In this document: positions 5,988-51,871 of the stretch, one piece after another
How positions within the stretch are numbered: the stretch's first letter is position 1
How the letters are laid out: the number at the start of each line of letters is the position of its first letter
Virus record (IMG/VR): IMGVR_UViG_3300032665_000013
From: a virus
Lineage: Duplodnaviria; Heunggongvirae; Uroviricota; Caudoviricetes
Direction: 5' to 3' (one strand)
DNA: 64,000 bases
Made by a program: the position numbers and the translations under genes
The notes under the pieces: model-generated
The model's database searches: none
The model's input: the letters and a program-made list of their open reading frames with translations, nothing else
Told to the model about the DNA's origin: nothing

Positions 5988-7049
5988 ATGAAGTTGCTTT
6001 TTATTCTCAAAAGAAGAGAAGATTATAATTCTGAAATACATTCAAAAATTGGTCTAAGCACAGGATTATATAATTCCGCTAAATTCATGAATGATATGAT
6101 GGTGGAATCTGGATTTGATTCTGTCTTAGAGGTGGCTGTCGATAATAATTGCATAGACAGACTCGTGACTGAACATAACCCAACTCACGTAATTATAGAA
6201 GCACTTTGGGTAGTACCTTCTAAATTTGCCGAGCTTACAAAATTACATCCTAATGTGACATGGATTATTAGACTACACAGCGAAATGCCCTTCATGGCTG
6301 GCGAAGGTATTGCATTGGATTGGATGGGCGATTATGCTTCATTCAATAATGTTTTAATAGCCTGTAACGCACCAAGAATGCTAGGTGAGGTAAGGGTATT
6401 TCTAAAATCAAAATTTAGATGGTCTAATGAGAAGACAGAGGATAAGGTTATTTACCTTCCAAATTTTTACCCACAAGAATATTCAATTAAATCTTTTGAT
6501 AAAGATAAATATTGGATCGATATATCTTGTTTCGGAGCGGTCAGACCTCTTAAAAATCATGTATTACAGGCTCTTGCTGCATTAAAGTTTGCTAATTCCA
6601 TTAAAAAGCAATTGCGATTTCATGTGAATGGTGATAGAATTGAGATGAAGGGAGATCCCATTCTTAATAATCTTAAGGGGATGTTCCAACATTTTTCTAC
6701 TTCCACTGCCAAACATGAAATTATCATGCATACATGGTGTCCTAGAGAACAATTTTTAAAAGTATGTTCCGATATGGATATTGGAATGCAGTGTAATCAT
6801 TCAGAAACGTTTAATATTGTTAGTGCAGATCTTGTTTCACAAGGCGTCCCTATTGTAGGATCCAGTGAAATTCCTTGGGCATCTAGGTTATTCAATGCCG
6901 AGCCATATAATAGCGATGGTATTGCTAAGGCATTGACTCGCACATATATGTTTCCAAATGTCAATGTACGAAGAAATCAAAAGAAATTGTATAAATACAC
7001 TAACAAGACACGTAAAATCTGGGAAAACTATTTTAAAAGGGTATCATAA
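5988..7049 (+). CDS. GT-B-fold glycosyltransferase-like protein (possible DNA or sugar transferase)
   Basis: 353 aa, similar size and loose motif layout to T4 beta-glucosyltransferase (Gly-rich nucleotide-sugar loop ISCFGAVRPLKNH). Weak, from memory only. Confidence 0.35.
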   Translation: MKLLFILKRREDYNSEIHSKIGLSTGLYNSAKFMNDMMVESGFDSVLEVAVDNNCIDRLVTEHNPTHVIIEALWVVPSKFAELTKLHPNVTWIIRLHSEMPFMAGEGIALDWMGDYASFNNVLIACNAPRMLGEVRVFLKSKFRWSNEKTEDKVIYLPNFYPQEYSIKSFDKDKYWIDISCFGAVRPLKNHVLQALAALKFANSIKKQLRFHVNGDRIEMKGDPILNNLKGMFQHFSTSTAKHEIIMHTWCPREQFLKVCSDMDIGMQCNHSETFNIVSADLVSQGVPIVGSSEIPWASRLFNAEPYNSDGIAKALTRTYMFPNVNVRRNQKKLYKYTNKTRKIWENYFKRVS

Positions 7050-19623: not shown

Positions 19624-19986
19624 TTAAACATTTTTATTTTCTCTGTTGTATTGTTCGACACTGCGCATGCCTGCGGGAGAAATAATTACTTGACCTCTTG
19701 CAGAATCTCCATAATCAGCAAAAGTCAACCAATGAAGATTTTCTTTTCCTACAAGATTTACAAAATCGGCCATTACTTTTCGTGTCATTCTAGGCAGATC
19801 CCGATATACCCAATCGATTTTATCTGGAAAGCATTCACGAACTAGAGAAGCTTCTAATTCATCAGACAGCTTCTTTAACTCTTGCATTTCTTCCTTTGTG
19901 AATGGATTATTACCAGCCATACAATTACACCTTTCGATTCCACAATATACAAAACATTTCTTATTGATTAACTCGGGTCCATACAT
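19624..19986 (-). CDS. hypothetical protein
   Basis: 120 aa ORF. Confidence 0.45.
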   Translation of the reverse strand: MYGPELINKKCFVYCGIERCNCMAGNNPFTKEEMQELKKLSDELEASLVRECFPDKIDWVYRDLPRMTRKVMADFVNLVGKENLHWLTFADYGDSARGQVIISPAGMRSVEQYNRENKNV

Positions 19987-20576
19987 TCTTTATAAATCCT
20001 TGATCTTACGTCATTTGCCGACATACCTTCCGTATCTAAAGAATTTAGAAAATTGGCAATATGATCCAATCCTTCATAGAGATAAGGTTTAGGTGTCTTA
20101 CTAACATTTGCATCATAGATCTTTTTACGTAGACCAGACGAACTAAAATGATGATCACGAGAACAATAATGAATCTTAATAGGTAAATTAGCCCCTGTAA
20201 AAGTATGATTATGTTTGTAATCAGCACCAAGAAATCTAACATCAATTGGATACGTTGTCAAGATAGCATATAGATCATCTTCTGTTTCGTATGGAATAAT
20301 TGTGGCACCTGATGCAAAAATACAACTACTTAATTGTAACCATCGTTCGAAATATGATTGGATAGGTCTGTTCTTCTCAGGGCGATCTATAGTGGGATCA
20401 GTATGCAATCCAATATAGAGGTGGCTACAATTCTCCCTACATTCCTTAAGCATTAGTAAATGCCCAGCATGTAAAAGATCAAATGAAGAAGCTATGAAAC
20501 CATTTGTCATGAATTTAAAATCGCTTCTACCAAAAAGATAAACCCTACTGTGATCACTATAAGATCCATAGCACAT
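19968..20576 (-). CDS. cytidylyltransferase-fold nucleotidyltransferase (HldE domain II / TagD-like)
   Basis: FDLLHAGHLLML is the HxGH signature. Downstream IGLHTDPTIDRPEKNRPIQSYFERWLQLSSC...LGADYK parallels the HldE adenylyltransferase domain. Confidence 0.55.
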   Translation of the reverse strand: MCYGSYSDHSRVYLFGRSDFKFMTNGFIASSFDLLHAGHLLMLKECRENCSHLYIGLHTDPTIDRPEKNRPIQSYFERWLQLSSCIFASGATIIPYETEDDLYAILTTYPIDVRFLGADYKHNHTFTGANLPIKIHYCSRDHHFSSSGLRKKIYDANVSKTPKPYLYEGLDHIANFLNSLDTEGMSANDVRSRIYKECMDPS

Positions 20577-30055: not shown

Positions 30056-31153
30056 TCATACTCCTAGGAAGAAATTGATAATATGAAAATGATCATCAAA
30101 AAGCATATCTTCACGAAGTTCCCCGATAGGGATCCACTTTGCTTTTTCAGCATCATCCGCACCTTTGACCTTAGGCAATTTTACATCATCTGTCAACTTG
30201 AAATGGGCAGCATGAGTGATAACCCTACCCAAAGTAGATCGATGCACATCATCGAACACATGTTCGCCTACTTGACAACCACGGATAACCTTTTCAGGAA
30301 CCTTAATAAGAGTTTCTTCCTTAAGTTCACGAAGGATACCATCGGATATACGTTCATCCATCTCTAAATGGCCTCCCGGAAGTGCCCACAGCCCCTTTCC
30401 CGGCTCACTGCGGCGCTTTACCAACAGAATATGCCCAGATTGCTCTACAACAGCATCTACAGTAACATGTTTAACTGGATATGGTGCAGCTGCCCATGAT
30501 TTCTTATATGCCTTTACGTGGACCAATTCCGACTTCAATTGGTCATACTCTGAGGTATGAATAAATCGGTCAAAGAGAAATTGTGCGCTCTCCTTAGGAA
30601 GAAGAGAATCTTGGACTTCCCATTTATGTAACCGTCCTTCAAGAAATCCTTCACGAATATTAGTTGCATGAATATCTCCATGAACATCCACATTCACGGA
30701 TTCCCATTGGGGGAACAATTTAAGATAATATGAAGAATGATCTTTAGAGGCTCCAATCAAGCCTACTTTGGCATCAGCAGTTCCATGAAGATGAAATCCA
30801 CCCTCATTAATGATATCAAGAGTTACATTATTAGCAATATCTTGAATTTGCTTAACCCACGCACTATCATTGTAAAGCTTATCATATAGAGGCTTAATAA
30901 TAAGGCGACTGTTAGCAGTTTCTGTGGAATATCCAAATGGAATCCCTACATGATCTGAGAATACCTCAGAAATAACATTTTCTCGCTCTTGAAATGTAAA
31001 GGGGGTACGAATTGTACGTGCTTTACCAGCAGATCCAACCAAAACCAAGACATTTCTTGATTTCTCTAAAGCGGTTTGGATAACCTTGACATGGCCAAGG
31101 TGAAGAGGACTAAATCGCCCAATAAAAACCAATAGGTCAAATTCTTTATTCAT
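30056..31153 (-). CDS. natV: bifunctional NMN adenylyltransferase (NadM type) plus Nudix hydrolase, NatV-like
   Basis: N-terminal LVFIGRFSPLHLGHV (GRFQP.H.GH). C-terminal Nudix box GLWALPGGHLEMDERISDGILRELKEETLI. Confidence 0.85.
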   Translation of the reverse strand: MNKEFDLLVFIGRFSPLHLGHVKVIQTALEKSRNVLVLVGSAGKARTIRTPFTFQERENVISEVFSDHVGIPFGYSTETANSRLIIKPLYDKLYNDSAWVKQIQDIANNVTLDIINEGGFHLHGTADAKVGLIGASKDHSSYYLKLFPQWESVNVDVHGDIHATNIREGFLEGRLHKWEVQDSLLPKESAQFLFDRFIHTSEYDQLKSELVHVKAYKKSWAAAPYPVKHVTVDAVVEQSGHILLVKRRSEPGKGLWALPGGHLEMDERISDGILRELKEETLIKVPEKVIRGCQVGEHVFDDVHRSTLGRVITHAAHFKLTDDVKLPKVKGADDAEKAKWIPIGELREDMLFDDHFHIINFFLGV

Positions 31154-36793: not shown

Positions 36794-37267
36794 TTAAAAA
36801 TCTTTTATGTTAGATACCAAGTCGATAGTCTGTTCAGCGGATGTATGAGTTATTCCTCTGCCACCAGCTGTGATAAATGCGTCAACATTTTTCCATTGAT
36901 CATCTATCAATAATATATCATGCGCTGCATACAGAGCTTTTACCTCTTTTTTAGGTACGATAACTGGAATCCAAGATGGAAATCCATTGGATATCAACCA
37001 TCTAATTTTCTGTTTAGCAACATCAATGAATAAATCCTGTTGAATGCCACCAGCGGATGAAAGATAAAAAACTTTAAGATTTATCGATTGAAGATATCTA
37101 ATAAGATCGAATGCATCTGGTAAAACAGGAAGGGTTTCAAATCCACCATCTTTAACAAATTTTGGAAATTTCCACTGCCACTCTTCTTTTGTGCTACTAG
37201 AAAAATCATATCCAGAATTAAAATCTGCCAATACGCCATCTATATCTAAAGCAATTGTTGTAATCAT
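36794..37267 (-). CDS. gmhB: HAD-superfamily phosphatase (GmhB-like heptose bisphosphate phosphatase candidate)
   Basis: Motif I DIDGVL, motif IV LLIDD. 157 aa. Sits inside the heptose cluster. Confidence 0.5.
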   Translation of the reverse strand: MITTIALDIDGVLADFNSGYDFSSSTKEEWQWKFPKFVKDGGFETLPVLPDAFDLIRYLQSINLKVFYLSSAGGIQQDLFIDVAKQKIRWLISNGFPSWIPVIVPKKEVKALYAAHDILLIDDQWKNVDAFITAGGRGITHTSAEQTIDLVSNIKDF

Positions 37268-37881
37268 TAGTATTTTATCTCCTCTGGATTTTTATCGCTC
37301 TGAGTTCTACGGATAGTCTGAGCGATAAAATGCATCAATGCTTGGCTTGCATCTTCAACAATCCCATAATTATTAGATTCGATATGTAAATAAACATCTG
37401 AGTAGTCTAATGCTGCTCCTCCATCGAATCCTACAATTGCAATTGTTTTCATACATTTAGCTTTAGCTGTTTGTAATGCTTTGCAAATATTTGGACTATT
37501 TCCAGATGAACTAATAGCAATTAAAACATCATTGCGCCTTCCTTGCCATTCTATTTGTTTTGAAAAAACTTCATCATAACCAATATCATTGGCGATGGCA
37601 GTCATAACAGAAACATTTGATGCTAAAGAAATAATTTTTGGATATAATTCTGTATCTGTTGCTACCCCTTTCATACAATCACATGATAAATGTTCAGATA
37701 TTGCTGCTGACCCGCCATTGCCACATGTGAATATGGTTTTAGAAGATCCCATAGCTTGTATCATAATATCAACTATTTGATCTAAATCAAATTCATCAAT
37801 ATTATGAATTGCTACTGCTAGGTCATCAGCATAAGTATGCAAATCTAGATAAGGTTTAGTCACGATATACCACCTTTGCAC
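37267..37881 (-). CDS. gmhA: sedoheptulose-7-phosphate isomerase GmhA (SIS domain)
   Basis: IFTCGNGGSAAISEHL and SSSGNSPN. Confidence 0.8.
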   Translation of the reverse strand: MQRWYIVTKPYLDLHTYADDLAVAIHNIDEFDLDQIVDIMIQAMGSSKTIFTCGNGGSAAISEHLSCDCMKGVATDTELYPKIISLASNVSVMTAIANDIGYDEVFSKQIEWQGRRNDVLIAISSSGNSPNICKALQTAKAKCMKTIAIVGFDGGAALDYSDVYLHIESNNYGIVEDASQALMHFIAQTIRRTQSDKNPEEIKY

Positions 37882-38803
37882 CTTCTGGTGCCATTTTAAC
37901 TGTTAACACTGTGTCTTTAAACTTACATTGTGTTAATTTGTTGCGATCTTTTTCTGTTTGCATCATGGCTAATATATACCCACCTCCGCCAGCACCAAGA
38001 ACCTTACATCCGATACTGCCTAAGGAATAACAAGTTTCAATAATATCATCTATGATATTGTTTGATATTTCGGATGATGTTTTTTTCTTAAGGTTCCACG
38101 AATGAGATAAATTTGTGCCATACTGAATTATATCTACTTTAGAATTTCCAATTAAATGCGCTATATCTTTTATTTTATCTAAGTGGTTCGATTTATCAAA
38201 CACCACAGTATCTAAAATTGAGGTGGCTTTTCTTTGTATTCCAGTTGAAATAAGAACACAATTATCCAATATATTATTATCATCAATTTTAGAAATTTTA
38301 CATCCAGATTCTGAATATTCGATATAATTCATCCCACCAAATGCTGAAGCATACTGATCTTGTTTGCCAATTCTCCATCCGCATTTTTCAATTTCTATCT
38401 TAGAGGCAAGCTCTGCTATTGAATATGCATTATATCCAGAAAAAGAATATAAATCTACTACAGCAGAAATAAGGGCACATGTGAAGGCAGAAGATCCACC
38501 TAGCCCACTTCCTATCGTAGGAATATCCGCCCATGTATTAATTTCGATACCTGTTTTTATTCCAAAATATTTGAGAACTTCTCTGACAATATCATGTTCA
38601 ATATCATTGATATCATAGACAAGTTCTTGTTTCATATATGAAATTTTAACATGACGATGCGGAGTTTTACTAACAGCCACATAAACAAATTTATCAACAG
38701 CGATGGAGATTGTAGCGCCACCGCCATTATTAATATAATACTCTGGAACATCTGTACCACCTCCAAAAAAGCTAACCCGTAACGGAGCTTTAGCTAAAAT
38801 CAT
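37856..38803 (-). CDS. hddA: GHMP-family D-glycero-D-manno-heptose 7-phosphate kinase (HddA-like)
   Basis: APLRVSFFGGGTDV N-terminus and GHMP motif IPTIGSGLGGSSAF. Confidence 0.75.
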   Translation of the reverse strand: MILAKAPLRVSFFGGGTDVPEYYINNGGGATISIAVDKFVYVAVSKTPHRHVKISYMKQELVYDINDIEHDIVREVLKYFGIKTGIEINTWADIPTIGSGLGGSSAFTCALISAVVDLYSFSGYNAYSIAELASKIEIEKCGWRIGKQDQYASAFGGMNYIEYSESGCKISKIDDNNILDNCVLISTGIQRKATSILDTVVFDKSNHLDKIKDIAHLIGNSKVDIIQYGTNLSHSWNLKKKTSSEISNNIIDDIIETCYSLGSIGCKVLGAGGGGYILAMMQTEKDRNKLTQCKFKDTVLTVKMAPEGAKVVYRD

Positions 38804-38958
38804 AAAATTTCCTCAATAACAACCCCAACCTCTACATTTAGTACATTTTACCCCGCCGCCGGGGGCATTAACTATATCCCCGTCACAATCTGGGGTAGCA
38901 TCCCATAGCTCATCGTGATATTCTTTGCGCTTGGCTTCTTTACGTCCATCCTCTGTCA

Positions 38959-39969
38959 TTATCCGGTCCTATACATGAACTTTGGAGACGCTACAGAAAT
39001 GTCTTTCCCTATGTTTTCGGCTACCAATGATTGGCATAAGGCATTCCACTGAGAAGACACTCTATCCCAATTAAATCTAAAATCTGCATATGTTTTTACA
39101 AAATTAAGATATGGCATCATATTATCATTTTGTAGACGATTAATAGTATCATCCAAGAGATTATAGAACAATCCAGCATGTTTGTTTTGATCATTATCCC
39201 ATTGATATTGTAATGTCAACCCACCACTTGTATCAGTTAATCCTGCAAAATTAGGATGAACGCATACACAACCAGATGACATTGCCTCAATCAAGGATCT
39301 ACTATTACATTCCATCCAAATGGAAGGATATGCAAAAATATGTGCATTTGCTACATGCTGTCTTACAGTTTCGTTACTAGCAAATCCGTGGTAGTTAATT
39401 TGGGGATGATTTCGACAACGTTCAAATAATTCTTCGAATTGTGCATCAGCTTCTGACCATCCATAAATTGCATAGCTAGAAAATACATCTAAAATTATAT
39501 TAGGATGTTTCTTCGCCAGTTCTTCAAATACTGGCACCAAGATGTTCAATCCTCTCTGAGGAGTGGAGGTATAGATTAAACGTATTTCTTTTTTTGGATC
39601 TGGTTTATTAATTGCTGGAAATGGATCAATTGCGGTATCGATTACACAGAATTGCTGAGTTTGGGGGACACCTAACAACATCTGATATGCGTTCATTTGC
39701 CAATTACCACAATATACTATCTTATGAAACCTATTTCTGCTATTAGGATCCTGTAGATGTTTAGTTTCACTATCCATTGGTAGATCATGAACCCAATAAA
39801 TTCTAAGCCTATCATCATGTAATTCTCGTACACGAGAAGGAATAATCTGAAATTTATCATGAAATTCCGGGTTTAATCTTGAAATAAGACCTTCTACCAT
39901 TTGTTCAGTTCCGCCATGAGAATTCTTATTTAATTCATTACGGGACCAAAGTTTTGGATCAATGCTCAT
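38959..39969 (-). CDS. GT4/GT1-family glycosyltransferase
   Basis: C-terminal ECNSRSLIEAMSSGCVCV corresponds to the E.FG..L.EAMA.G.PV motif. Confidence 0.65.
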   Translation of the reverse strand: MSIDPKLWSRNELNKNSHGGTEQMVEGLISRLNPEFHDKFQIIPSRVRELHDDRLRIYWVHDLPMDSETKHLQDPNSRNRFHKIVYCGNWQMNAYQMLLGVPQTQQFCVIDTAIDPFPAINKPDPKKEIRLIYTSTPQRGLNILVPVFEELAKKHPNIILDVFSSYAIYGWSEADAQFEELFERCRNHPQINYHGFASNETVRQHVANAHIFAYPSIWMECNSRSLIEAMSSGCVCVHPNFAGLTDTSGGLTLQYQWDNDQNKHAGLFYNLLDDTINRLQNDNMMPYLNFVKTYADFRFNWDRVSSQWNALCQSLVAENIGKDISVASPKFMYRTG

Positions 39970-40945
39970 AATTTAATTCCTCGATATGTCTATAATGCGA
40001 TTTAATAATATCGCTTAAATTGTGTTTGGGTCTATAATTCAATTGTGTGATGGTTTTAAACGTATCTGCTAAAAGATACGCAGGATCCCCAGAACGTTCT
40101 TCGCTTATCGAATAAGTTAAAGGAAAATGCTGCTGAAACATTTTTACAAGCTCTTTATTAGAGCTATGGCATGCATTACCATTTCCAACGTTAAATGTGT
40201 CGAAATATCCATATTCAGTGAGGATGATATGGTTGGCGGCAGCTATAAGAGTTCGACACACATCTTCTACATGTATGTAATCTCTAACACAGGTTCTGTC
40301 ATATGTATTATAATCAGATCCAAATATCTTGAATTCAGACTTATTTATAGAGGCCATAGACATTTTTGTCAATATATGAGGTTGATCAACATCCTGTCCT
40401 AATTCCCCATATGAGCCTGCTACATTGAAAAACCTCATAGCCATAGCTCTGGCACCATATGCGGCACATACAGCCTCTAAGAGCTTCTCTCCGAACCATT
40501 TGGTCCATCCATAGGGGTTGATGGGATTTCCTGCTAAATCTTCTCTGATTAGATGTGATGTTCCAACATCACCATATACCGCAGCAGAAGAAGCAAAAAC
40601 AATAGGAGTTTTTTGATTTACTCCTTCTACGATACCAGTCAACATTTCAGTTAAATGTGAATTGTTGTTTTTAAAATATGTAAGAGGATTTGTCACAGAT
40701 GGGCCAAGCAAACTATTGGCTCCTAAATGGAATATTACATCAACTTTATTTTGTTTAGCTTTCCAAAAGTTGATATTGCCATATCCTGTAGGCTTATTAT
40801 TATAAGCACGAGAAACATAATTAGAAATGATGTCCAAAGGCTTATTATCAATATCCAAAGCCACAACATTCCAACCAGATTCATGAAGAATTTTACAAAG
40901 AATTCGGCCAATATATCCCCCTGCTCCGGTAACAATAGCTTTCAC
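39959..40945 (-). CDS. NAD-dependent sugar-nucleotide epimerase/dehydratase (extended SDR)
   Basis: VTGAGGYIG Rossmann motif. Catalytic YGWTK (YxxxK). Confidence 0.75.
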   Translation of the reverse strand: MKAIVTGAGGYIGRILCKILHESGWNVVALDIDNKPLDIISNYVSRAYNNKPTGYGNINFWKAKQNKVDVIFHLGANSLLGPSVTNPLTYFKNNNSHLTEMLTGIVEGVNQKTPIVFASSAAVYGDVGTSHLIREDLAGNPINPYGWTKWFGEKLLEAVCAAYGARAMAMRFFNVAGSYGELGQDVDQPHILTKMSMASINKSEFKIFGSDYNTYDRTCVRDYIHVEDVCRTLIAAANHIILTEYGYFDTFNVGNGNACHSSNKELVKMFQQHFPLTYSISEERSGDPAYLLADTFKTITQLNYRPKHNLSDIIKSHYRHIEELNYEH

Positions 40946-41099: not shown

Positions 41100-41594
41100 T
41101 CATATACTCTCACTTATCGTATAAGAAATAACATTTGAATAATTCAGATTAAATTTTCCATGTTTACCAGACACTACCACGATATCTTTATCTAATGGAT
41201 CTAATGATATAAATGTAAGCATATCTTGTTCACTGTGTAAACCAGTGTTATATTCAACCGATAATGGAGAATAATTTGTCATATCATGAAAAAATAATGA
41301 TTTATATTGATCATCCATTTCTGAAATATATTCAACTAAAGAATCATACCCGCCTATAGGTCTATAGTAAGAATCTTCGTATATAACCCAAATTTGAGGA
41401 ACAGTCTTAGCATCTGGTGCTAATTCTAAAAGCTCTTCTTTGGTATAGTCCTCTCCAAGATTCATATATGTAAATTCAAAATTCTTATTAGTGAGAACTT
41501 CTTTTGCTTTATCACAAAATTGACAATTATTTTTTCCATAAACGATGAAACGCATATTATCTCCAAGAAATTTTATTAATAGAAATCCTAGCAT
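41100..41594 (-). CDS. nrdC: glutaredoxin-like protein (NrdC-like) with C-terminal extension
   Basis: MRFIVYGKNNCQFCDKAKEVL...TVPQIWV...IGGYD. Confidence 0.55.
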   Translation of the reverse strand: MLGFLLIKFLGDNMRFIVYGKNNCQFCDKAKEVLTNKNFEFTYMNLGEDYTKEELLELAPDAKTVPQIWVIYEDSYYRPIGGYDSLVEYISEMDDQYKSLFFHDMTNYSPLSVEYNTGLHSEQDMLTFISLDPLDKDIVVVSGKHGKFNLNYSNVISYTISESI

Positions 41595-43752: not shown

Positions 43753-43830
43753 TGGCGAATGCGCTGGGATTCGAACCCAGATTTTCAGTTTTGGAGACTG
43801 ACGTGTTAAACCATTGATCACTACGCAAAC
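43753..43830 (-). tRNA. tRNA-Trp(CCA), acceptor stem with two U-U mismatches
   Basis: Minus-strand cloverleaf: anticodon arm TCAGT-CTCCAAA-ACTGA, T-arm CTGGG-TTCGAAT-CCCAG, encoded CCA. Acceptor GTTTGCG/CGCATTC is weak. Confidence 0.5.
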
Positions 43831-43913
43831 GTGAGGGCAAGGTTTTTTAAAGAAAAACCCTGCAAGAAAACTTAATCTCTGTATTATACCAGAGCAGCTC
43901 TGATGCATGCTAC

Positions 43914-44123
43914 CTATTGTCCGAGATTAACGACATTTTGGTTCTTAATAACTAAATCATTTTTAGTTGCATAATCTATAACATCTGAATAATAAAATAT
44001 TATTCCGCCGCCATCCCGTGGTTTGGTATTCGGTAAAGCTTTAAGAAAGCTAAATGTTTGCGGATAGAAATATTTACTACTATCGAATATATCATCTATT
44101 ATTTCTTGATCGGTCATATGCAA
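43914..44123 (-). CDS. hypothetical protein
   Basis: 69 aa ORF. Confidence 0.35.
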   Translation of the reverse strand: MHMTDQEIIDDIFDSSKYFYPQTFSFLKALPNTKPRDGGGIIFYYSDVIDYATKNDLVIKNQNVVNLGQ

Positions 44124-44124
44124 C

Positions 44125-44310
44125 CTAATTAAAATTATTTATAATTTCTATTATTTCTTTATATTGATGCAGTGAGTTTGCCGATGTGCCTGCCAATATT
44201 ACGACTAGTAATTCTAAATGTTCTCTAGGCATCGTTTTAATATGTTCTATATATTCGTTAAAATCTGGACGATCATGTGACATATTTAATCCCTCATAAA
44301 ATACTAGCAT
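44125..44310 (-). CDS. hypothetical protein
   Basis: 61 aa ORF. Confidence 0.35.
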   Translation of the reverse strand: MLVFYEGLNMSHDRPDFNEYIEHIKTMPREHLELLVVILAGTSANSLHQYKEIIEIINNFN

Positions 44311-44328
44311 ATGAAACGTATATACAAT

Positions 44329-44405
44329 TGGTCGGGAAGACAGGGATCGAACCTGCGACCTGATGCTCCCAAAGCACCCGCTCTACCACCTGAGCTACTT
44401 CCCGA
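44329..44405 (-). tRNA. tRNA-Pro(TGG)
   Basis: Acceptor TCGGGAA/TTCCCGA, D-arm GCTC-AGGTGGT-AGAGC, anticodon loop TTTGGGA, T-arm GCAGG-TTCGATC-CCTGT, CCA. Confidence 0.85.
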
Positions 44406-44425
44406 TATTCTTTATTTAGTTTTAG

Positions 44426-44472
44426 GCGGGAGTGACGATTCTTCACCCGCTCTACCATCTTACTGTCAAGCC
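44426..44472 (-). pseudogene. tRNA-Pro-like 5' fragment (acceptor/D-arm/anticodon-stem remnant, no 3' half)
   Basis: ggcttgacagtaagATGGTAGAGCGGGTGaagaatcgtcac shares GGTAGAGCGGGTG with the adjacent tRNA-Pro. No T-arm or acceptor 3' strand follows. Confidence 0.35.
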
Positions 44473-44548
44473 TTCTATATGACTATTTTTGGCCTTTGTG
44501 ATTGGTGTGCTATTTATTGATCGTTTAACTACACTACTAAAACAATAT

Positions 44549-44630
44549 TGGCACCCTAGGTAGGATTCGAACCCACATGTTAGTTCCAGTTACCTTTCGC
44601 TCCGTTCGTAGCGGAGGGGGATACTAGGGC
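44549..44630 (-). tRNA. atypical tRNA-like element, possible degenerate tRNA-Arg(ACG)
   Basis: Acceptor GCCCTAG/CTAGGGT, T-arm GTGGG-TTCGAAT-CCTAC, CCA. Internal hairpin CTCCG-CTACGAA-CGGAG carries an ACG anticodon. No normal D-arm. 82 nt. Confidence 0.3.
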
Positions 44631-44826
44631 ATTAATTGGTTGCGGTGTCACGGATTTGCACCGGTTTTCTAGGATATGAGCCTAGTGAGATACTGAACCT
44701 CCCACCCGCTATGAAACTCTGTGAAGCCCTTTCAACTTCTTGGATAGCTCCCTTACCGATAGTCTATCTATGTCATCTTCCCGATGCGGGGCTAAGTTTT
44801 TACGGATATTTTCTTAGCATCTAATA

Positions 44827-44901
44827 TGGTACTCGGTAGTGGGATCGAACCACTGACAACTGCCGTGTAAAAGCAGCACTCTACCGCTGAGTTAACCGAG
44901 C
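44827..44901 (-). tRNA. tRNA-Val(TAC)
   Basis: Acceptor GCTCGGT/ACCGAGT (G1-U72), D-arm ACTC/GAGT, anticodon loop TTTACAC, T-arm AGTGG-TTCGATC-CCACT, CCA. Confidence 0.85.
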
Positions 44902-44918
44902 ATTTTTTCAAAATTTTA

Positions 44919-44994
44919 TGGTACGGACGGTGAGGATCGAACTCAACACCTACTGGTTGGAAGCCAGTCACGCAAACCACTACGCCACGCCCGC
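44919..44994 (-). tRNA. tRNA-Gly(TCC)
   Basis: Acceptor GCGGGCG/CGTCCGT, anticodon arm ACTGG-CTTCCAA-CCAGT, T-arm TTGAG-TTCGATC-CTCAC, CCA. Confidence 0.85.
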
Positions 44995-45064
44995 ATGTAT
45001 TTCTAAAGTATATATGTAAATTTATAGGTTGTCAAGTAATATTTTCAATATTTTATAAATAACT

Positions 45065-45829
45065 TTGTGGTTCACGAAGTCCCCACTTCCAACCACCTTA
45101 ACAGCTTTCAAGGAGCATGTCAACATGATTATTTATCTCTACGTAAAACAACATTCCATCACAGGATTAAAATATTTTGGAATGACTACTAAATTAAATC
45201 CCTTTACTTATAAAGGTTCTGGTAAATATTGGTCAAAACATATCAAAAAACATGGTAGAGATTATATTAAAACATTAGATGTTTGGGGATTTGATGACCA
45301 AAAGCTTTGTACTGAGTTTGCTTTAAAATTCTCTCGTGATAATAATATCGTCAATTCTAATCAATGGGCCAACCTTATAGAAGAGATTGGAATTTCTGGA
45401 AGAATTAGAGGGCAGTCGGGATCACCAAGAAGCGAAGAGTGCAGAATAAAAATATCAGAAAAAGCTTTAGGTAGAAAATCTTGGAACAAAGGACTAACTA
45501 AAGAAAATGATCCAAGGGTTGCTAAAATATCACAATCCTTGTCAGGTATAAAGAAAAATTCCGAACATATTGAAAAATTAAAAATTCCTAAATCGGATGA
45601 ACATAAACAAAAAATAAAAGAAATAATGAATAAAGATAAATATAAAAACTTATTAGCAGATAGAGTCAGAGGAATACCAAGAACAGAAGAACAAAAGCAT
45701 AAACAACGATTGGCTATGATAGGTAGACCCGGAGCAAACAAAGGAAAACCTATGTCTGAAGAAAGTAAAAGAAAACTCAGCGAGTCTCAAAAATTAAGAA
45801 TAGCCAAAAGGAAAGAATTATGTCCATAA
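45065..45829 (+). mobile_element. GIY-YIG homing endonuclease (Seg-like) with NUMOD3 DNA-binding repeats
   Basis: N-terminal IIYLYV...GLKYFGMT...GSGKYW. Three NUMOD3-like repeats (SPRSEECRIKISEKALGR, HIEKLKIPKSDEHKQKI, RTEEQKHKQRLAMIGRPG). Confidence 0.7.
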
Positions 45830-46161
45830 ACAATATTAATAAAAAAATAGCGGTCACTGCAACTGATTTAATGGGGACCATGGGAACAGTGTATTTTTTC
45901 TTTTTTTTAGTTATGATACCATTGGTATTCCCCACATTAATGACTCCAATAATGTATATTTCATCGTCTATAATTCAACTTGTTGTCCTTCCTCTTATCA
46001 TGGTAGGACAACAAGTTCAAGGTGAAAAGACAGAAATAAGAGCAATCCAAGATCATGAAACATTGATGGCAGAATTAGCTGAAATCAAAGAAATTCATTC
46101 AACTCTCAATCAACTTCATAAGGATAAAGCTGGATGTGGTTACGTCTCTGTCTCTTCTTGA
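45820..46161 (+). CDS. membrane protein
   Basis: Two long hydrophobic helices. Confidence 0.45.
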   Translation: MSINNINKKIAVTATDLMGTMGTVYFFFFLVMIPLVFPTLMTPIMYISSSIIQLVVLPLIMVGQQVQGEKTEIRAIQDHETLMAELAEIKEIHSTLNQLHKDKAGCGYVSVSS

Positions 46162-46718
46162 TCTTAAATATTATTTTATGTAGTAATCCAACATTCGGTC
46201 AAACTATAACTGCTGATAGGCCGGGTATTGGTGCGGATCCTGAAACTGTTCCACAATATACATTACAACCAGAGATGGGAACTGATTCTAAAGAAATTCG
46301 CCTTGGGGTATTAAAAGGATTTGAATTGGATCGAGATGACACAAGCTGGGGGGCCAAGGTATCACTAATAGATAATGATACATTTAAATCATCTCTAAAA
46401 ATATCATATGATGAAACTCTTAAAACTGTGGTAGAAATTCCTTCCAATTATACCTACAACAAATGGTTTAATTTAGGAACAGATATTTCTATCTCTAAGA
46501 CAGTTAAGATATACGCTGGCGAATTTAATTTTACTCCTACTTCTACCTTAACAATCAGTCCAACTGTATATTTTGATGGTAAACCTAGAGTAGCGGCTTT
46601 TGTAGCATGGATACCACTTAAACATCAAAATATACAATTCGATATCGGATATGACAAGAAAAAGTTTAGTATTGGAATAAGCACGGCTTTAAATTTCAAA
46701 GACATATTTAAAAAATAA
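46134..46718 (+). CDS. secreted beta-rich protein
   Basis: N-terminal signal sequence MWLRLCLFLILNIILCSNPTFG. Alternating beta pattern. Confidence 0.5.
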   Translation: MWLRLCLFLILNIILCSNPTFGQTITADRPGIGADPETVPQYTLQPEMGTDSKEIRLGVLKGFELDRDDTSWGAKVSLIDNDTFKSSLKISYDETLKTVVEIPSNYTYNKWFNLGTDISISKTVKIYAGEFNFTPTSTLTISPTVYFDGKPRVAAFVAWIPLKHQNIQFDIGYDKKKFSIGISTALNFKDIFKK

Positions 46719-46861
46719 AGGGTTTTTCCTAGCCGGAACGCACTCTACCCTTAAACGTTTTATTAACTTGGCTGCGACAACCGGAATTGCACCGATGTTT
46801 TCCTAACATAACCTACCCTAGGATTGTAGGTACGCTTATTTAGAAGCTTATATCACAAAAT

Positions 46862-47068
46862 TTATTCTTGTTTTTCGGCCATCCAATTTTCTGCAAAATT
46901 CATTGCATCTTTTCTTGAAGAAAGATTATATGCAATCATTTTATTATCGAATATGAAACTCCAAGTAAGATTTACATTATTACGCACGATATCAATATAG
47001 ATGTTATTTTTGTAAACACAAAGATCATAATCAGGATACTTCAAATCTTCTTGATTCCAGTCTATCAT
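46862..47068 (-). CDS. hypothetical protein
   Basis: 68 aa ORF. Confidence 0.4.
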   Translation of the reverse strand: MIDWNQEDLKYPDYDLCVYKNNIYIDIVRNNVNLTWSFIFDNKMIAYNLSSRKDAMNFAENWMAEKQE

Positions 47069-47116
47069 AATATTACCCTTCCATTTGTCAAAGTCTGAAA
47101 CTTATCTGACTTTGGA

Positions 47117-47470
47117 TCATATTCTTCCCAATCTTTTAGCCCAAGGACCTCTAAATGTCAAGAGAAAAGTAGTACCATTTGAATCAACTTTATGAAAATC
47201 TTCTCGTCTAGTTATAAATGGTTTCAAACTTGGTTTATGCCAAACCCATCTACCACCTAAAAAAGTTTCTGTCAATCTTCCATAAAGAACCCATGAAAAG
47301 CAATTGAATGCATGAGAATGAAACATTTCTCTCGATTTGCCTTCAAATTTCAAAAGCGCAATTGAAAAAACATTTTTCCATTCTATCAACCAATATCCTG
47401 TAACAGTGGATTCTGGACCGCCATCTTTCATAATTTTAAATAATTTCATATTCCATCCTAACAGCTTCAA
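47117..47470 (-). CDS. hypothetical protein
   Basis: 117 aa ORF. Confidence 0.45.
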   Translation of the reverse strand: MKLLGWNMKLFKIMKDGGPESTVTGYWLIEWKNVFSIALLKFEGKSREMFHSHAFNCFSWVLYGRLTETFLGGRWVWHKPSLKPFITRREDFHKVDSNGTTFLLTFRGPWAKRLGRI

Positions 47471-47717
47471 CCAACTTTCGTCTGTGGGTCTTTCGGGGAT
47501 TCTGGTTTAATGGAACTACTATAATCCCTTTTTCGTAATATAACAGGCTGCGCTGTGCTTAACCGGGACCACCCGCACACCGAATCGAACGGTTCAGACC
47601 TCTTGTTCAAAAAAGTATTTTTTAAATGCGGTAATCAGCCTAATATCACAGGATTGCTTTTGTCCGCTAAGACACCCAAAGTTATAGCGTTTTTATTTGC
47701 TGTAACAATCCTAAAAC

Positions 47718-47791
47718 TGGCGACTCTGACGGGACTCGAACCCGTCTTCACCGGTAGACAGCCGGTGGCCTTCCCTGACGGCAACAGAGCC
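47718..47791 (-). tRNA. tRNA-Asp(GTC)
   Basis: Acceptor GGCTCTG/CAGAGTC, anticodon arm ACCGG-CTGTCTA-CCGGT, T-arm ACGGG-TTCGAGT-CCCGT, CCA. Confidence 0.8.
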
Positions 47792-47796
47792 ATTAT

Positions 47797-48039
47797 TTAA
47801 TATTTAGATAGGTTTCTGATAGGAATTATCTTATCTTCTCCATCTTTATATGTCACTATTACACATGCCTCGTCGTAATATGTACAAAATTCAGAAATAA
47901 TAGCCAGTTGACATCCAAATTTATTGGTATTTACTAGCACCATTTCCCCAACTTCATAGTTCGTTTGGGCATGTCGACCGTGAGTTGGAATTGCATCGAT
48001 TAGAATTGGTTTCATAAAACTTCTCCTTACCATCTGCAA
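47797..48039 (-). CDS. hypothetical protein
   Basis: 80 aa ORF. Confidence 0.4.
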   Translation of the reverse strand: MQMVRRSFMKPILIDAIPTHGRHAQTNYEVGEMVLVNTNKFGCQLAIISEFCTYYDEACVIVTYKDGEDKIIPIRNLSKY

Positions 48040-48073
48040 TAAATCATTTTCAACACAAAGTCAACATAAAAAT

Positions 48074-48158
48074 TGGTGGGTAAGTGTGGACTCGAACCAC
48101 TCCCGGTTAAGGTCAGGTTTTACAGACCGTCTGCTAGAACCCCTAGCTTTACCTACCC
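48074..48158 (-). tRNA. class-II-length tRNA-like gene, anticodon unresolved (possible Tyr GTA)
   Basis: Acceptor GGGTAGG/CTTACCC, T-arm GTGG-TTCGAGT-CCAC, CCA, 85 nt. A CTGTAAA loop is present but its flanking stem does not pair. Confidence 0.4.
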
Positions 48159-48165
48159 ATAAATG

Positions 48166-48242
48166 TGGTGCCTCTCCGAGGTTTCGATCCCCGTTCTTCC
48201 GCTCTTCAGGCGGACGCTATGACCACATCAGCTAAAGAGGCA
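48166..48242 (-). tRNA. tRNA-Phe(GAA)
   Basis: Acceptor TGCCTCT/AGAGGCA (U1-A72), anticodon arm TCCGC-CTGAAGA-GCGGA, T-arm CGGGG-ATCGAAA-CCTCG, CCA. Confidence 0.8.
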
Positions 48243-48467
48243 CTCTATTAAACCATCCGTAGCATGAGGATTCCTACCCCGCCCAACCAATCTTAGCTAT
48301 TCAACTATGAATGCCCATCGCTACGGTGATGGGTGGCCTCTTACTCTGTGTTTCGAGTTTCGAACCTCTACACACATATAAAACTGGTCTAGGTGGTGGG
48401 TAACGCTCCCACGATCCGGTGGTTCCAAACCACCGTTTAGCCCTTGCTATCTCACCTAGATATTATA

Positions 48468-48544
48468 TGGTAGCGATGGAGAGATTCGAACTCACACTGT
48501 TCTGGTTCTAAGCCAGTTGTCTCCTGCCGTTGGACTACATCGCC
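48468..48544 (-). tRNA. tRNA with TAG anticodon (Leu-decoding) but short class-I variable arm
   Basis: Acceptor GGCGATG/CATCGCT, anticodon stem CTGG/CCAG with loop CTTAGAA, T-arm GTGAG-TTCGAAT-CTCTC, discriminator A, CCA. Confidence 0.5.
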
Positions 48545-48545
48545 A

Positions 48546-48998
48546 CTATCTTTTTTGTGAATGGCAATTTGGACATAAAAATTGTAAATTTTCAGGTGAG
48601 TCATCCCAATGTTTTTCATTGATATGATCAATTTCTAAAATCAATTTTTTATTATTCCAAAAAGATTCAATTTTACATTCATTACATATTTCTGGTATCC
48701 CTAAAGCAATTAATCCATTTCTTAAATGGGATGCTTTTTGTCTTCCAGAATTTATATCTCTTGTAACTAAGCGTTCGATAGGATTTCTCTTATTTAGAGA
48801 GACTTTTCCTTTATTCCAAGCTTGACCAGTCATATGAGACAAATCAATTTGAAATTTCGAACACACACGCTTTAAATGACTTATGTTGCCTCCGACAGAC
48901 CTCTTGTCACATTTCCTCAAAACTTCAGATAAAGACATCGAATCTGCTACTATTAAAGCTAATTCATCTTTTTTATAATTATTATATTTTTTATTCAT
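48546..48998 (-). mobile_element. HNH homing endonuclease
   Basis: C-terminal HINEKHWDDSPENLQFLCPNCHSQK. Immediately abuts a tRNA. Confidence 0.7.
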
Positions 48999-49380
48999 TG
49001 ATTACTCCATTAGTAGAGTAACTATTTATATAATATTGTATATTTACTAATCTAAAATGATTGATGTTTTCTTGCTACGCCCTTCTAGCTTAGAAAAAGT
49101 TTATCAGGCTAACATCAATCATTTTAAATCTGGTTCCAATATATAGTCACCAGCAACCTTTAAAACACACTTTAAAACACAAAAATAATTACAATATCCA
49201 ATAAATTAATAAAAATATTAAGTTAGGGCATAATAACTTCTCCTATTTATAAAAGAATTCGTATTAAGATTTAGCTAGAATATATTATATTGCATTTATT
49301 GTCAAGAGAAAATTTCAGTGTACAGAAACTTTCAAACTCTATCTCGGAGCGACCGAACATTCTCCCCCTAGGGAGCTTAC

Positions 49381-49456
49381 TGGTGGACCATCTCGGGTTC
49401 GAACCGAGGACATACGGATTAAAAGTCCGCCACTCTACCTACTGAGTTAATGGTCC
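49381..49456 (-). tRNA. tRNA-Lys(TTT)
   Basis: Acceptor GGACCAT/ATGGTCC perfect, D-arm ACTC/GAGT, anticodon arm GCGGA-CTTTTAA-TCCGT, T-arm CTCGG-TTCGAAC-CCGAG, CCA. Confidence 0.9.
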
Positions 49457-49487
49457 AATTAACTGTTCAAACGGCTGTAGACAAAAC

Positions 49488-49736
49488 TTAATTTGTCTTA
49501 ACTTGTCTTAAATATTCCAACACTTCTTCTTCAGTATCATATACTTTGATATGTGTCAAAGGATTTCTTAGTGCTACATGAATTTTAGACCCAAATTTAC
49601 GGATTATTCCATATCCTTCAAATCTTCCTTCACCAGCTTGTCTATTATTCCAACGAGTCCTATACCTATAGGGAAAAGGTTCGCTATTATAGTCTACATT
49701 CAATATTTCTGCACATTTTTGATAAAAACTTTTCAT
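49488..49736 (-). CDS. hypothetical protein
   Basis: 82 aa ORF. Confidence 0.4.
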   Translation of the reverse strand: MKSFYQKCAEILNVDYNSEPFPYRYRTRWNNRQAGEGRFEGYGIIRKFGSKIHVALRNPLTHIKVYDTEEEVLEYLRQVKTN

Positions 49737-49767
49737 ACCAATTATATAGTATAGTTTTTATATTATG

Positions 49768-49971
49768 TCAAGATAAAAGTTCAATTTCATCTTCATTACA
49801 AGGACATGTAACATGATCAAAAAAAACGTTTTTATCATCAAATAGTACATCATATGGCCAACGAGTTGTGTTAACTATACCTACAATAGTCCCAGCTCTT
49901 GTTGTTGCTCCTTCGAAATTGTAGGAACATTTTTTGGTGGCTATGATTTTATCTCCTACTTTAAATTTCAC
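49768..49971 (-). CDS. hypothetical protein
   Basis: 67 aa ORF. Confidence 0.4.
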   Translation of the reverse strand: MKFKVGDKIIATKKCSYNFEGATTRAGTIVGIVNTTRWPYDVLFDDKNVFFDHVTCPCNEDEIELLS

Positions 49972-49973
49972 GA

Positions 49974-50678
49974 TTACGCTGCCTTTTTGAAGAGGAAAAA
50001 GCTTTCGTGCTGTGGATAATTATCCACAAATTTACGAGCATAATATGAAATATGGTTATTGCTAATCTTGAAATCTGGGATATCCCAACGAATTCGTTCA
50101 ACAATGGTCTTAGGTGAAATAGTTGTGTGACCACGATTCATCGCACGAAATGCATACGACTTAAAGAGAGTATACACATATGGATTCTCAGTGTCAAACT
50201 TTGTAAAGCTTTCAACCAAAGAATTATCTTTAGTGGCATTCGCTGGCTCTTGTGCTGTAGGTGTTTCTACAGGTGACGATACAGCTTCAACCAATACAAG
50301 ATCATTCTCATCAAAAGCTCCACGCCCCTTAAAGGAGTCAACACAAGTATAGGCATACTTATCGCCTGCCCATACCTTGTATACTGTCATATTCTTCCAA
50401 ATGGGATACTTAATAGAACTGACCTTATCACCAACCTGAAACTTAGTTGGGGTTACCTTTGGTTCTTCGATTTTCTGAGGAACGAGAAAGATTTCATCTA
50501 GTGCAAACAGAGTTGCACTATAACTTGAATGAGTTCCTACCAACTTTGCTCGAATTGGATATGGTCGGCCATTTAGAACTTCCATAACTTCCAAATCTTT
50601 GTCAGCCAAATCAGAAAATGGATATTTACCATTTTGCTTCGTCTGACGCACAATATCACCAATCTTATAATAAACCAT
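49974..50678 (-). CDS. hypothetical protein
   Basis: 234 aa ORF. Confidence 0.5.
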   Translation of the reverse strand: MVYYKIGDIVRQTKQNGKYPFSDLADKDLEVMEVLNGRPYPIRAKLVGTHSSYSATLFALDEIFLVPQKIEEPKVTPTKFQVGDKVSSIKYPIWKNMTVYKVWAGDKYAYTCVDSFKGRGAFDENDLVLVEAVSSPVETPTAQEPANATKDNSLVESFTKFDTENPYVYTLFKSYAFRAMNRGHTTISPKTIVERIRWDIPDFKISNNHISYYARKFVDNYPQHESFFLFKKAA

Positions 50679-50744
50679 AATATATTCTCCGTTTCAATAT
50701 GAGGGCATTATACCCTGTTTAATAACTCTTGTCAACTCTTTTTT

Positions 50745-50816
50745 TGGTGGCTGGTAGTGGATTCGAACCACTCTGAGAGGCTTATGAAACCTCTTTAATC
50801 ACCAGATCGACCAGCC
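50745..50816 (-). tRNA. tRNA with CAT anticodon (Met or lysidine-Ile)
   Basis: Acceptor GGCTGGT/ACCAGCC, anticodon arm GAGGT-TTCATAA-GCCTC, T-arm AGTGG-TTCGAAT-CCACT, CCA. Short D-arm. Confidence 0.75.
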
Positions 50817-51037
50817 ATTGTGTTTTTAATCTTAGATTGTTCTATAACCAAATCAAGTTTATTTCGAAGGTTAATTGCATCAATTATTACCTGAAAATCC
50901 CCTCCTGCTATAGGTTTATTATTTTCAATTATATCATATGCATCTTTTTGATAATCCATAAGAGATATCTGTAGTTGTGTCATAAGTTTAGTAATAACTC
51001 GACCATCAACCCATGTTACGGTATTAGTCCTTTTCAT
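50795..51037 (-). CDS. hypothetical protein
   Basis: 80 aa ORF. Its 3' end overlaps the tRNA. Confidence 0.35.
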   Translation of the reverse strand: MKRTNTVTWVDGRVITKLMTQLQISLMDYQKDAYDIIENNKPIAGGDFQVIIDAINLRNKLDLVIEQSKIKNTMAGRSGD

Positions 51038-51044
51038 AATATAA

Positions 51045-51094
51045 AACCTTTAATGGTGCCGATGGTTAGATTCGAAACACATATATAGTTGCGG
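51045..51094 (-). pseudogene. tRNA 3'-half-like remnant (T-loop plus acceptor 3' strand plus CCA, no 5' half)
   Basis: TTCGAATCTAACC-ATCGGCA-CCA on the minus strand with no complementary 5' strand upstream. Confidence 0.3.
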
Positions 51095-51165
51095 TGCCCC
51101 CAGAAGGAATCGAACCCTCGTGTCCAACTTACAAGATTGGCAGTCTACCATTGACTTATAGGGGC
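51095..51165 (-). tRNA. tRNA-Thr(TGT), CCA not encoded
   Basis: Acceptor GCCCCTA/TGGGGGC, D-arm AGTC/GACT, anticodon arm CCAAT-CTTGTAA-GTTGG, T-arm GAGGG-TTCGATT-CCTTC. Confidence 0.8.
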
Positions 51166-51206
51166 ATTATGACTATAATGAGATATAAATTATATTAGGA
51201 GTATAT

Positions 51207-51866: not shown

Positions 51867-51871
51867 AAGGT

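Follow-up and report, generated by a model that had tools for sequence, protein, structure and literature searches.

Two bacterial routes to nucleotide-activated heptoses have been characterised: that to GDP-D-glycero-alpha-D-manno-heptose (Aneurinibacillus, Campylobacter and, with WcbL, Burkholderia) and that to ADP-L-glycero-beta-D-manno-heptose. Among phages, related gene clusters are already annotated in Caulobacter phage Cr30 (GenBank NC_025422, gp006-gp010 and gp178) and in cyanophage SynMITS9220M01 (genes 204-207), and such genes have been filed as lipopolysaccharide (LPS)-related host-derived or auxiliary genes in cyanomyophages and pelagimyophages (PMC7378029; PMC7029224). Phage clusters for the hypermodification of DNA with sugars provide a further comparison, and the heptosylation of 5-hydroxymethylcytosine (5hmC) by phage enzymes has been reported. 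Here, we analysed a 64,000-nucleotide stretch of a tailed virus of the class Caudoviricetes (IMG/VR record IMGVR_UViG_3300032665_000013; the whole stretch is hereafter referred to as the window) and its gene cluster at positions 36794-40945. Judging from its sequence, this cluster is probably a phage cassette for the synthesis of a nucleotide-activated heptose and for the transfer of that sugar, an estimate that applies to the make-and-transfer core and not to the acceptor. In view of the systems mentioned above, the cluster is not undescribed; the preliminary description of this DNA had spoken of an undescribed glycosylation target. In a limited literature search, we found no paper describing the clade-wide distribution of the cassette, its transaldolase and methyltransferase variants, or its function.

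The cluster consists of five co-directional open reading frames (ORFs) on the minus strand with nearly zero intergenic space, and identical calls were obtained on 17 independent metagenome contigs. These genes, together with a small intervening ORF, the upstream glutaredoxin gene and a distant nucleotidyltransferase gene, are as follows (aa, amino acids).

41100..41555, minus strand: glutaredoxin, NrdC-like (Glutaredoxin, 1e-11).
39959..40945, minus strand: extended-SDR nucleotide-sugar epimerase, GalE-like, 328 aa (Pfam Epimerase, 7.5e-35).
38959..39969, minus strand: GT4-family glycosyltransferase of the GT-B type, 336 aa (Glycos_transf_1, 7.7e-11).
38813..38959, minus strand: Cys-rich ORF, 48 aa (C..C...CxxC), lineage-specific, a gene call on sibling contigs.
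37856..38803, minus strand: HddA-type GHMP sugar kinase, 315 aa (GHMP_kinases_N, 5.8e-15; GHMP_kinases_C, 6e-6).
37267..37863/37881, minus strand: GmhA, SIS domain, 198-204 aa (SIS_2, 4.6e-21).
36794..37267, minus strand: NT5C-type HAD 5'(3')-nucleotidase, 157 aa (NT5C, 24.8 bits).
19968..20576, minus strand: cytidylyltransferase-fold nucleotidyltransferase with an HxGH motif (PF01467, 6.4e-9).

For comparison, we gathered 80 IMG/VR loci with orthologs of the glycosyltransferase (GT) and mapped their genes; 40 of these had enough flanking sequence to be judged, and the fractions given below refer to them. The order running from the glutaredoxin gene to the GT gene is kept in 23 of the 40 loci as well as in Cr30, Stenotrophomonas phage DLP6 and Sinorhizobium phage phiM12. 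The glutaredoxin serves as a conserved marker on the upstream side of the cassette; it is not a pathway enzyme. The Cys-rich ORF, which lies between the GT and kinase genes and overlaps the GT stop codon, has no family match, is absent from the closest relative (locus L017) and is unrelated to a 50-aa ORF found at a similar place in Cr30. Scans for promoters, terminators and T4 late promoters yielded nothing beyond chance, and the timing of expression is argued solely from the operon-like packing with early-type genes.

The assignment of the first two pathway enzymes is consistent across methods. All of the top NCBIfam models for the SIS-domain protein are phosphoheptose isomerases (121 and 120 bits, with TIGR00441 at 120, against cut-offs of 209-276 bits), all of its top PDB matches are GmhA (4e-29), and the GNGGSA and SxSGNS motifs align; its start is probably at 37863, giving 198 aa. 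The best NCBIfam model for the kinase is HddA (NF049969, 114 bits versus an equivalog cut-off of 600 bits), its best PDB matches are WcbL (4usm/4usk, 5e-32) and the heptose kinases 3k85 and 4n3o, and it is 36% identical to the Cr30 protein annotated as 'D,D-heptose 7-phosphate kinase'. The epimerase, which Cr30 and 13 of the 40 loci encode at the corresponding position, contains GxxGxxG and YxxxK motifs and scores 196 bits with the GalE model TIGR01179 (cut-off 262) versus 94 bits with the HldD model TIGR02197 (cut-off 274.6). Its best PDB matches are UDP-glucose 4-epimerases (5e-40), with HldD at 8e-14. Its earlier assignment to the extended SDRs stands, and it is more similar to GalE than to HldD, the score for GalE being about twice as high. 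Family and fold matches also bear out the earlier identification of GmhA, HddA, the GT4 enzyme, the cytidylyltransferase-fold enzyme and a second GT-B protein encoded elsewhere in the window (see below).

The closest described arrangement is that of Cr30, which has the same order of glutaredoxin, epimerase, GT, D,D-heptose 7-phosphate kinase and GmhA genes and whose cassette proteins are 35-45% identical to those of the window. The two cassettes differ in several respects: the TagD-like cytidylyltransferase gene of Cr30 is on the cassette strand at a distance of a few kb, whereas that of the window is 17 kb away; GmhA is followed by a 365-aa conserved hypothetical protein and rnh in Cr30 but by the NT5C-type HAD protein in the window; and the small ORF is located between the kinase and GmhA genes in Cr30 but between the GT and kinase genes in the window. 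The cluster of SynMITS9220M01 likewise combines an HddA-like kinase, GmhA, a cytidylyltransferase-domain protein and an SDR epimerase with glycosyltransferases, at 27-35% identity to the window proteins; however, the cyanophage GT is not an ortholog, and the cyanophage has a HAD-cytidylyltransferase fusion and an HldD-like epimerase, unlike the window.

With the GDP-D-glycero-alpha-D-manno-heptose pathway the window shares GmhA and the HddA/WcbL-type GHMP kinase, but HddC and GmhB are missing and a cytidylyltransferase-fold enzyme is present instead of HddC. With the ADP-L-glycero-beta-D-manno-heptose pathway it shares GmhA, a nucleotidyltransferase with the fold of HldE domain II and an SDR distantly similar to HldD, but its kinase belongs to the GHMP and not to the PfkB family, its nucleotidyltransferase is equally close to TagD and ECT, and its epimerase scores twice as high for GalE. 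As predicted from these genes, the enzyme set of the window is a hybrid of both bacterial routes: its GHMP kinase corresponds to the GDP-D,D-heptose route, and its SDR and the fold of its nucleotidyltransferase correspond to the ADP-L,D-heptose route. The DNA-hypermodification clusters of phages follow a similar logic, with a sugar-phosphate isomerase/kinase, a HAD phosphatase, a nucleotidyltransferase and a GT-B enzyme; however, they use an APH-like kinase where the window has a GHMP kinase, the window GT is acidic and has no detectable similarity to their transferases, and no ThyA variant or 5mYOX was found with the cassette or in Cr30.

The related loci yielded several findings on the composition of the pathway. 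HddA and GmhA genes are located beside the GT gene in 27 of the 40 loci, and a cytidylyltransferase gene lies inside the cassette in 24, usually directly upstream of the epimerase or GT gene. A HAD protein of 180-196 aa is encoded in 12 loci and a protein of 241-249 aa in 8. The former is GmhB-like (Pfam Hydrolase_like and PNK3P; DRDGV, TNQP, KPNxGM and GDRWKD motifs), and the latter is a transaldolase (TAL_FSA, 132 bits), the enzyme making sedoheptulose-7-phosphate. The GalE-like epimerase and the GmhB-like phosphatase occupy the same slot and are mutually exclusive (13 versus 12 loci, none with both). Methyltransferases of the TylF, FkbM and MT_23 types, the first two of which are sugar-type enzymes, are frequent inserts in these sister cassettes. 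The transaldolase-bearing loci (L053, L056, L061, L063, L072, L074, L075, L080-L082, L085, L086, L089 and L094) show the order cytidylyltransferase, (methyltransferase), GmhA, GmhB, transaldolase, GT and HddA. This suggests that a phage transaldolase can feed glycan precursor supply, a link for which we found no precedent in the literature. In the window itself, tblastn detected no transaldolase, phosphomannomutase or NTP_transferase gene.

The same loci bear on the nucleotidyltransferase encoded at 19968-20576, which probably starts at residue 23 of the ORF. Its scores with TagD (47 bits) and RfaE domain II (TIGR02199, 40 bits versus a cut-off of 181.5) both fall short of the cut-offs, its best PDB match is ECT, and TagD, ECT and RfaE domain II score similarly. 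It is 40-55% identical to the in-cassette copies of the related loci, a range shared by the GT and the kinase, suggesting that it is a displaced ortholog of these copies. Furthermore, its homolog in SynMITS9220M01 is fused to a HAD domain and located between GmhA and an epimerase, and that in the huge phage LR756511 abuts the kinase. We thus regard its product as a predicted heptose-1-phosphate nucleotidyltransferase, whose place in the heptose pathway is supported by gene neighbourhood.

In the preliminary description, the HAD protein encoded at 36794..37267 was taken for a GmhB-like phosphatase. Its NT5C score of 24.8 bits equals the cut-off, and it matches PHROG 2643 ('5'-3' deoxyribonucleotidase') at 1.5e-21, but it matched no GmhB model in the family-model scan and has no similarity to the GmhB-like HAD proteins of the sister cassettes. 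Its homologs occur in 89 phage records, most of which lack heptose genes and annotate the protein as a 5'(3')-deoxyribonucleotidase. In Cr30, the ortholog adjoins dCMP deaminase outside the cluster, at a distance of 12 kb from the cassette, and a position directly after GmhA was seen only in the window and in L017. We therefore rejected its identification as GmhB in favour of a widespread phage NT5C-type 5'-nucleotidase that adjoins the cassette but is probably not part of it. In the arabinose route of phage RB69, an NT5C-like HAD protein acts as a sugar-bisphosphate phosphatase (PMC13326640). By analogy, the window protein may, speculatively, be a candidate stand-in phosphatase, but nothing beyond that.

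From homology and gene neighbourhood, the following route can be proposed. GmhA would isomerise host sedoheptulose-7-phosphate to D-glycero-D-manno-heptose-7-phosphate, and the HddA-type GHMP kinase would phosphorylate C1 to give the 1,7-bisphosphate. Because the window phage has no GmhB, the 7-phosphate would have to be removed by the GmhB of the host or, possibly, by the adjacent NT5C-type HAD protein. The cytidylyltransferase-fold enzyme would then couple heptose-1-phosphate to a nucleoside triphosphate (NTP), the GalE-like SDR may epimerise the resulting nucleoside diphosphate (NDP)-sugar, and the GT4 enzyme would transfer the sugar. The conserved synteny, the usual location of the cytidylyltransferase gene inside the cassette, the presence of GmhB and transaldolase in sister cassettes, and the arrangements in SynMITS9220M01 and LR756511 support this route from sedoheptulose-7-phosphate to NDP-heptose, and with it the earlier proposal that these genes jointly make and transfer an NDP-heptose.

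Several observations weigh against this interpretation. The cassette enzymes all score under the curated equivalog cut-offs; their family membership is clear, but their substrate specificity is deduced. No GmhB gene was detected in the window by tblastn with the GmhB-like proteins of the sister cassettes, and no HddC-type NTP_transferase (PF00483) was found among the approximately 45 window ORFs scanned or by tblastn with the cyanophage NTP_transferase. The scanned ORFs also gave no match to a PfkB kinase (HldE domain I). Neither characterised bacterial route thus joins a GHMP kinase to a cytidylyltransferase-fold enzyme; moreover, GHMP heptose kinases give the alpha anomer, whereas HldE domain II uses the beta anomer. 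The distance of the nucleotidyltransferase gene from the cassette is a further point, as is the epimerase, which resembles GalE more closely than it does HldD and could act on a hexose. Finally, phiM12, DLP6 and several loci have the GT but no heptose genes, so that a heptose need not be its sole donor.

The last observation leads to the GT itself, which is a core gene in a large T4-like clade comprising Cr30, phiM12, DLP6 and many uncultured phages, where it is located between nrdC and rnh (rnh is not adjacent in the window's own lineage). The enzyme matches PF00534 and PF13692, its E220-x7-E228 (EX7E) motif is invariant, and its AlphaFold model shows a GT-B fold (predicted local distance difference test score, pLDDT, 90.2). 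The top fold match in PDB is a GDP-mannose mannosyltransferase (ManT, 7qsg), followed by SenB, HepE, TarM, SdgB and BshA; fold searches against PDB and BFVD return generic GT4 enzymes whose acceptors range over proteins, small molecules, teichoic acids and polysaccharides, and thus do not discriminate the acceptor. We identified 3144 homologs, the best 120 of which share 54-77% identity and lie on phage-sized contigs of up to 232 kb, and orthologs are present in Cr30, DLP6 and the phiM12 group. Invariant residues are spread across both domains. The family is acidic (isoelectric point, pI, about 6; net charge about -6), and the GT has no hydrophobic segments.

Where heptose genes are absent, the backbone consists of glutaredoxin, GT, a 365-aa hypothetical protein, a 116-aa hypothetical protein and RNase H, and some of these loci carry phosphomannomutase instead. 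The heptose cassette thus reads as an accessory sugar-supply module added to a core GT, and the GT reads as a conserved transferase for manno-configured sugars that combines interchangeable supply modules with a conserved acceptor. The conserved acceptor is deduced from the strong conservation of both GT domains across phages of unrelated hosts. A scan of GTDB for this GT returned mostly phage contigs binned into metagenome-assembled genomes, and only loci of Paraburkholderia and Caballeronia look cellular. One of these (L120 7992-14370; Paraburkholderia sp. BCC1885, NZ_CAAJGM010000022.1) encodes a homolog of 42% identity that is directly followed by two TPR plus Glyco_transf_9-like proteins of 905 and 701 aa. 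This arrangement is that of a protein-glycosyltransferase architecture and provides a weak lead for a protein acceptor.

As to what is glycosylated, a phage-encoded protein, such as a virion component, is the possibility to which we tentatively lean, because a phage-protein acceptor fits the conservation of the GT. It counts against this lean that it draws on conservation logic and on a single cellular locus, that of Paraburkholderia.

Remodelling of the host envelope, with a conserved envelope precursor such as the LPS inner core as the acceptor, is a serious contender, although we consider it unlikely. The heptose supply would be boosted or diverted and the GT would modify the LPS core, the capsule or a lipid-linked glycan at the inner membrane face, so that superinfection is blocked or progeny are kept off debris. 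The closest characterised relatives of the pathway enzymes act in LPS, capsule or S-layer glycan synthesis, the variation among cassettes (heptose, methyl-heptose, mannose) resembles surface-glycan diversification, the JGI names of the GT homologs are LPS glucosyltransferase or cell-wall glycosyltransferase, and the literature labels such phage genes as LPS-related. The properties of the GT point away from this role. Its acceptor-binding N-terminal domain is as conserved as its donor domain among phages of Caulobacter, Stenotrophomonas, Sinorhizobium and freshwater hosts, and the envelope glycans of those hosts differ. The acidity of the GT and its lack of hydrophobic segments also fit poorly; peripheral-membrane GT-B enzymes are typically basic. 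In addition, a lytic T4-like phage has a short time for changing the cell surface, and flippase, polymerase and lipid-carrier genes are absent from the cassettes.

Another kind of acceptor, such as a small molecule or RNA, is distinctly unlikely.

Hypermodification of DNA, in which NDP-heptose would be used to decorate 5hmC, 5-hydroxycytosine (5hoC) or 5-hydroxymethyluracil (5hmU) of the phage genome and thereby block restriction, appears improbable to us despite a close precedent. In E. coli, one and two heptoses are added to 5hmC by enzymes of phage origin, namely a bifunctional HAD/APH protein, a cytidylyltransferase and a transferase of the GT-B type, as found for the metaviromic cluster 'contig 53' (Pyle et al. 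preprint, bioRxiv 10.1101/2023.12.21.572611), and phages RB69 and DLP3, which carry arabinosyl-5hoC, follow an analogous route with a SIS isomerase, a kinase/nucleotidyltransferase, a HAD phosphatase resembling NT5C and transferases resembling GT4 (Lee et al. 2026, PMC13326640). The location of the cassette among genes for nucleotide metabolism and replication (NrdAB, NrdC, dCMP deaminase and RNase H), the conservation of the GT regardless of host, and the second, basic GT-B protein encoded beside gp32 are also consistent with a DNA target. However, such base-modification pathways are usually clustered, and no ThyA homolog or other base-activating enzyme (altered ThyA or 5mYOX) was found in the window or in 866 kb of sequence from the 80 related neighbourhoods. 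The preliminary description had proposed looking for dCMP hydroxymethylase or 5-hmdU pathway genes outside the window; in the 10 kb to its right, no thymidylate-synthase-like gene was detected. The complete Cr30 genome encodes a single ThyA with canonical D169 and N177, together with dCMP deaminase, and has no annotated hydroxymethylase, TET-like enzyme or C5-methyltransferase. These ThyA positions were numbered by alignment to what we take to be the E. coli ThyA sequence. When the Cr30 ThyA was used to search long related IMG/VR contigs, none of the 9 matches was on a cassette-bearing contig.

The enzymes point in the same direction. The methyltransferases of the sister cassettes are of the sugar type (TylF, FkbM) and not DNA C5-methyltransferases, and the GT family is acidic. 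DNA alpha-glucosyltransferases fit the GT4 model worse than generic GT4 enzymes do (TM scores of 0.41-0.48), and tblastn with the GT finds no transferase of RB69, DLP3 or RL38JI. The evidence thus leans against DNA as the target. A further argument, that the DNA of Cr30 and phiM12 is unmodified because these phages are generalised transducers, was dropped, because RL38JI transduces and yet carries hexosylated 5hoC.

Finally, it is very improbable that the pathway does not concern heptose at all and that the SIS isomerase and GHMP kinase act on another sugar phosphate, such as a pentulose or hexulose phosphate: the sub-threshold model scores, the GalE-like epimerase, the SIS enzyme of the RB69 arabinose route, which acts on a different sugar phosphate, and the former mistaking of phage arabinose-pathway SIS isomerases for related isomerases (PMC6024577) would allow it, but the best models and top structures are GmhA and heptose kinases and not KdsD/API, galactokinase or fucokinase, and sister cassettes encode transaldolase, a source of sedoheptulose-7-phosphate, and GmhB-type phosphatases with signature motifs.

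The second GT-B protein mentioned above is encoded apart from the cassette, adjoining gp32.

5988..7049, plus strand: orphan GT-B-fold protein, 353 aa (AlphaFold/Foldseek).

This protein has no Pfam, NCBIfam or PHROG match. Its AlphaFold model (pLDDT 87.7) has a GT-B fold, with BshA, the GT4 enzyme BA1558 and MshA as the top Foldseek matches (TM scores of 0.67-0.72), and it is thus predicted to be a second GT-B glycosyltransferase. We found 3802 homologs in metagenomes at about 65% identity; among isolates, phiRSL1 and RsoM2USA, two jumbo phages of Ralstonia, are the only ones with a homolog. Its family has a basic pI of about 8.8. Both distant genes that had been associated with the cassette, that for the cytidylyltransferase-fold enzyme and that for this protein, are real, although the GT-B protein is an orphan with at most a putative link to the heptose cassette.

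The window has a GC content of approximately 36% and encodes T4-type gp32 and gp59, baseplate and tail proteins, DNA and RNA ligases and 18 tRNAs, and its source is an uncultured environmental (freshwater) phage of the T4 superfamily. When the cluster was compared by megablast with 50,697 phage records, no relatives were detected at the DNA level, indicating that relatives exist at the protein level only. By this measure, Caulobacter phage Cr30 is the isolate closest to the window; the phiM12 group of Sinorhizobium phages comes next, then Stenotrophomonas phage DLP6 and the pelagimyophages and cyanomyophages. The window proteins recur on 17 JGI and Logan metagenome contigs. The 10 kb past the right end of the window contain ADP-ribosyltransferase genes and PTH2; two adjoining ADP-ribosyltransferase (ADPrib_exo_Tox) genes are located directly past this end (L098 3689-5382).

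The 18 tRNA genes comprise one on the plus strand (2863-2938) and 17 on the minus strand (43753-62320), among which small ORFs and homing endonucleases are scattered. A tRNA-Gly/tRNA-Val pair is directly preceded by a near-consensus sigma-70-like promoter (TTGACA-17-TATACT, 45035-45007). A T4 Rnl1-type RNA ligase is seemingly split into adjacent ORFs of 140 and 270 aa (58857-60102, minus strand), both pieces of which match RNA_lig_T4_1 on sibling contigs, and a 139-aa protein encoded at 57265-57684 (minus strand) was flagged as PF26128 (Gad2) on a sibling contig. Genes for NAD salvage are present at 24423-26236 and 30056-31153, both on the minus strand. They include a NAPRTase-family fragment of 241 aa; the ORF that comes directly after it (369 aa) has an N-terminus resembling that of homing endonucleases, so that the gene may be interrupted. 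A bifunctional protein with NMN adenylyltransferase and Nudix parts is encoded as well and exceeds the cut-off of NF003786 with 411 bits; together they resemble a phage NAD-reconstitution pair. In a related phage (L077 909-3761), the large subunit of ribonucleotide reductase contains an intein (Intein_splicing, Hom_end_hint).

In this study, we found that a predicted heptose cassette known in Cr30 is common in related uncultured phages. The sugar genes of aquatic T4-like phages are routinely labelled 'LPS auxiliary metabolic genes' without test, whereas the combination of a core GT with interchangeable supply modules points to a conserved, phage-relevant acceptor rather than to host-specific surface editing. 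A fuller proposal, which we offer as doubtful, is that a non-canonical route comprising an HddA-type GHMP kinase and a cytidylyltransferase-fold enzyme decorates a conserved phage macromolecule, be it virion proteins or DNA with an unrecognised acceptor base, across a large and mostly uncultured T4-like clade, some members of which would be fed by transaldolase and tailored by O-methyltransferases. If this is true, the swappable heptose, methyl-heptose and mannose modules would constitute a glycan-diversification system, and the phage transaldolase would gain a role in glycan precursor supply. The enzymology would define a third route to nucleotide-heptoses. Because Cr30 is culturable, genetically tractable and carries the same cassette, the glycosylation question of the whole clade is directly testable there, and if the acceptor is the virion or its DNA, glycan-based evasion would extend to an abundant group of environmental phages.

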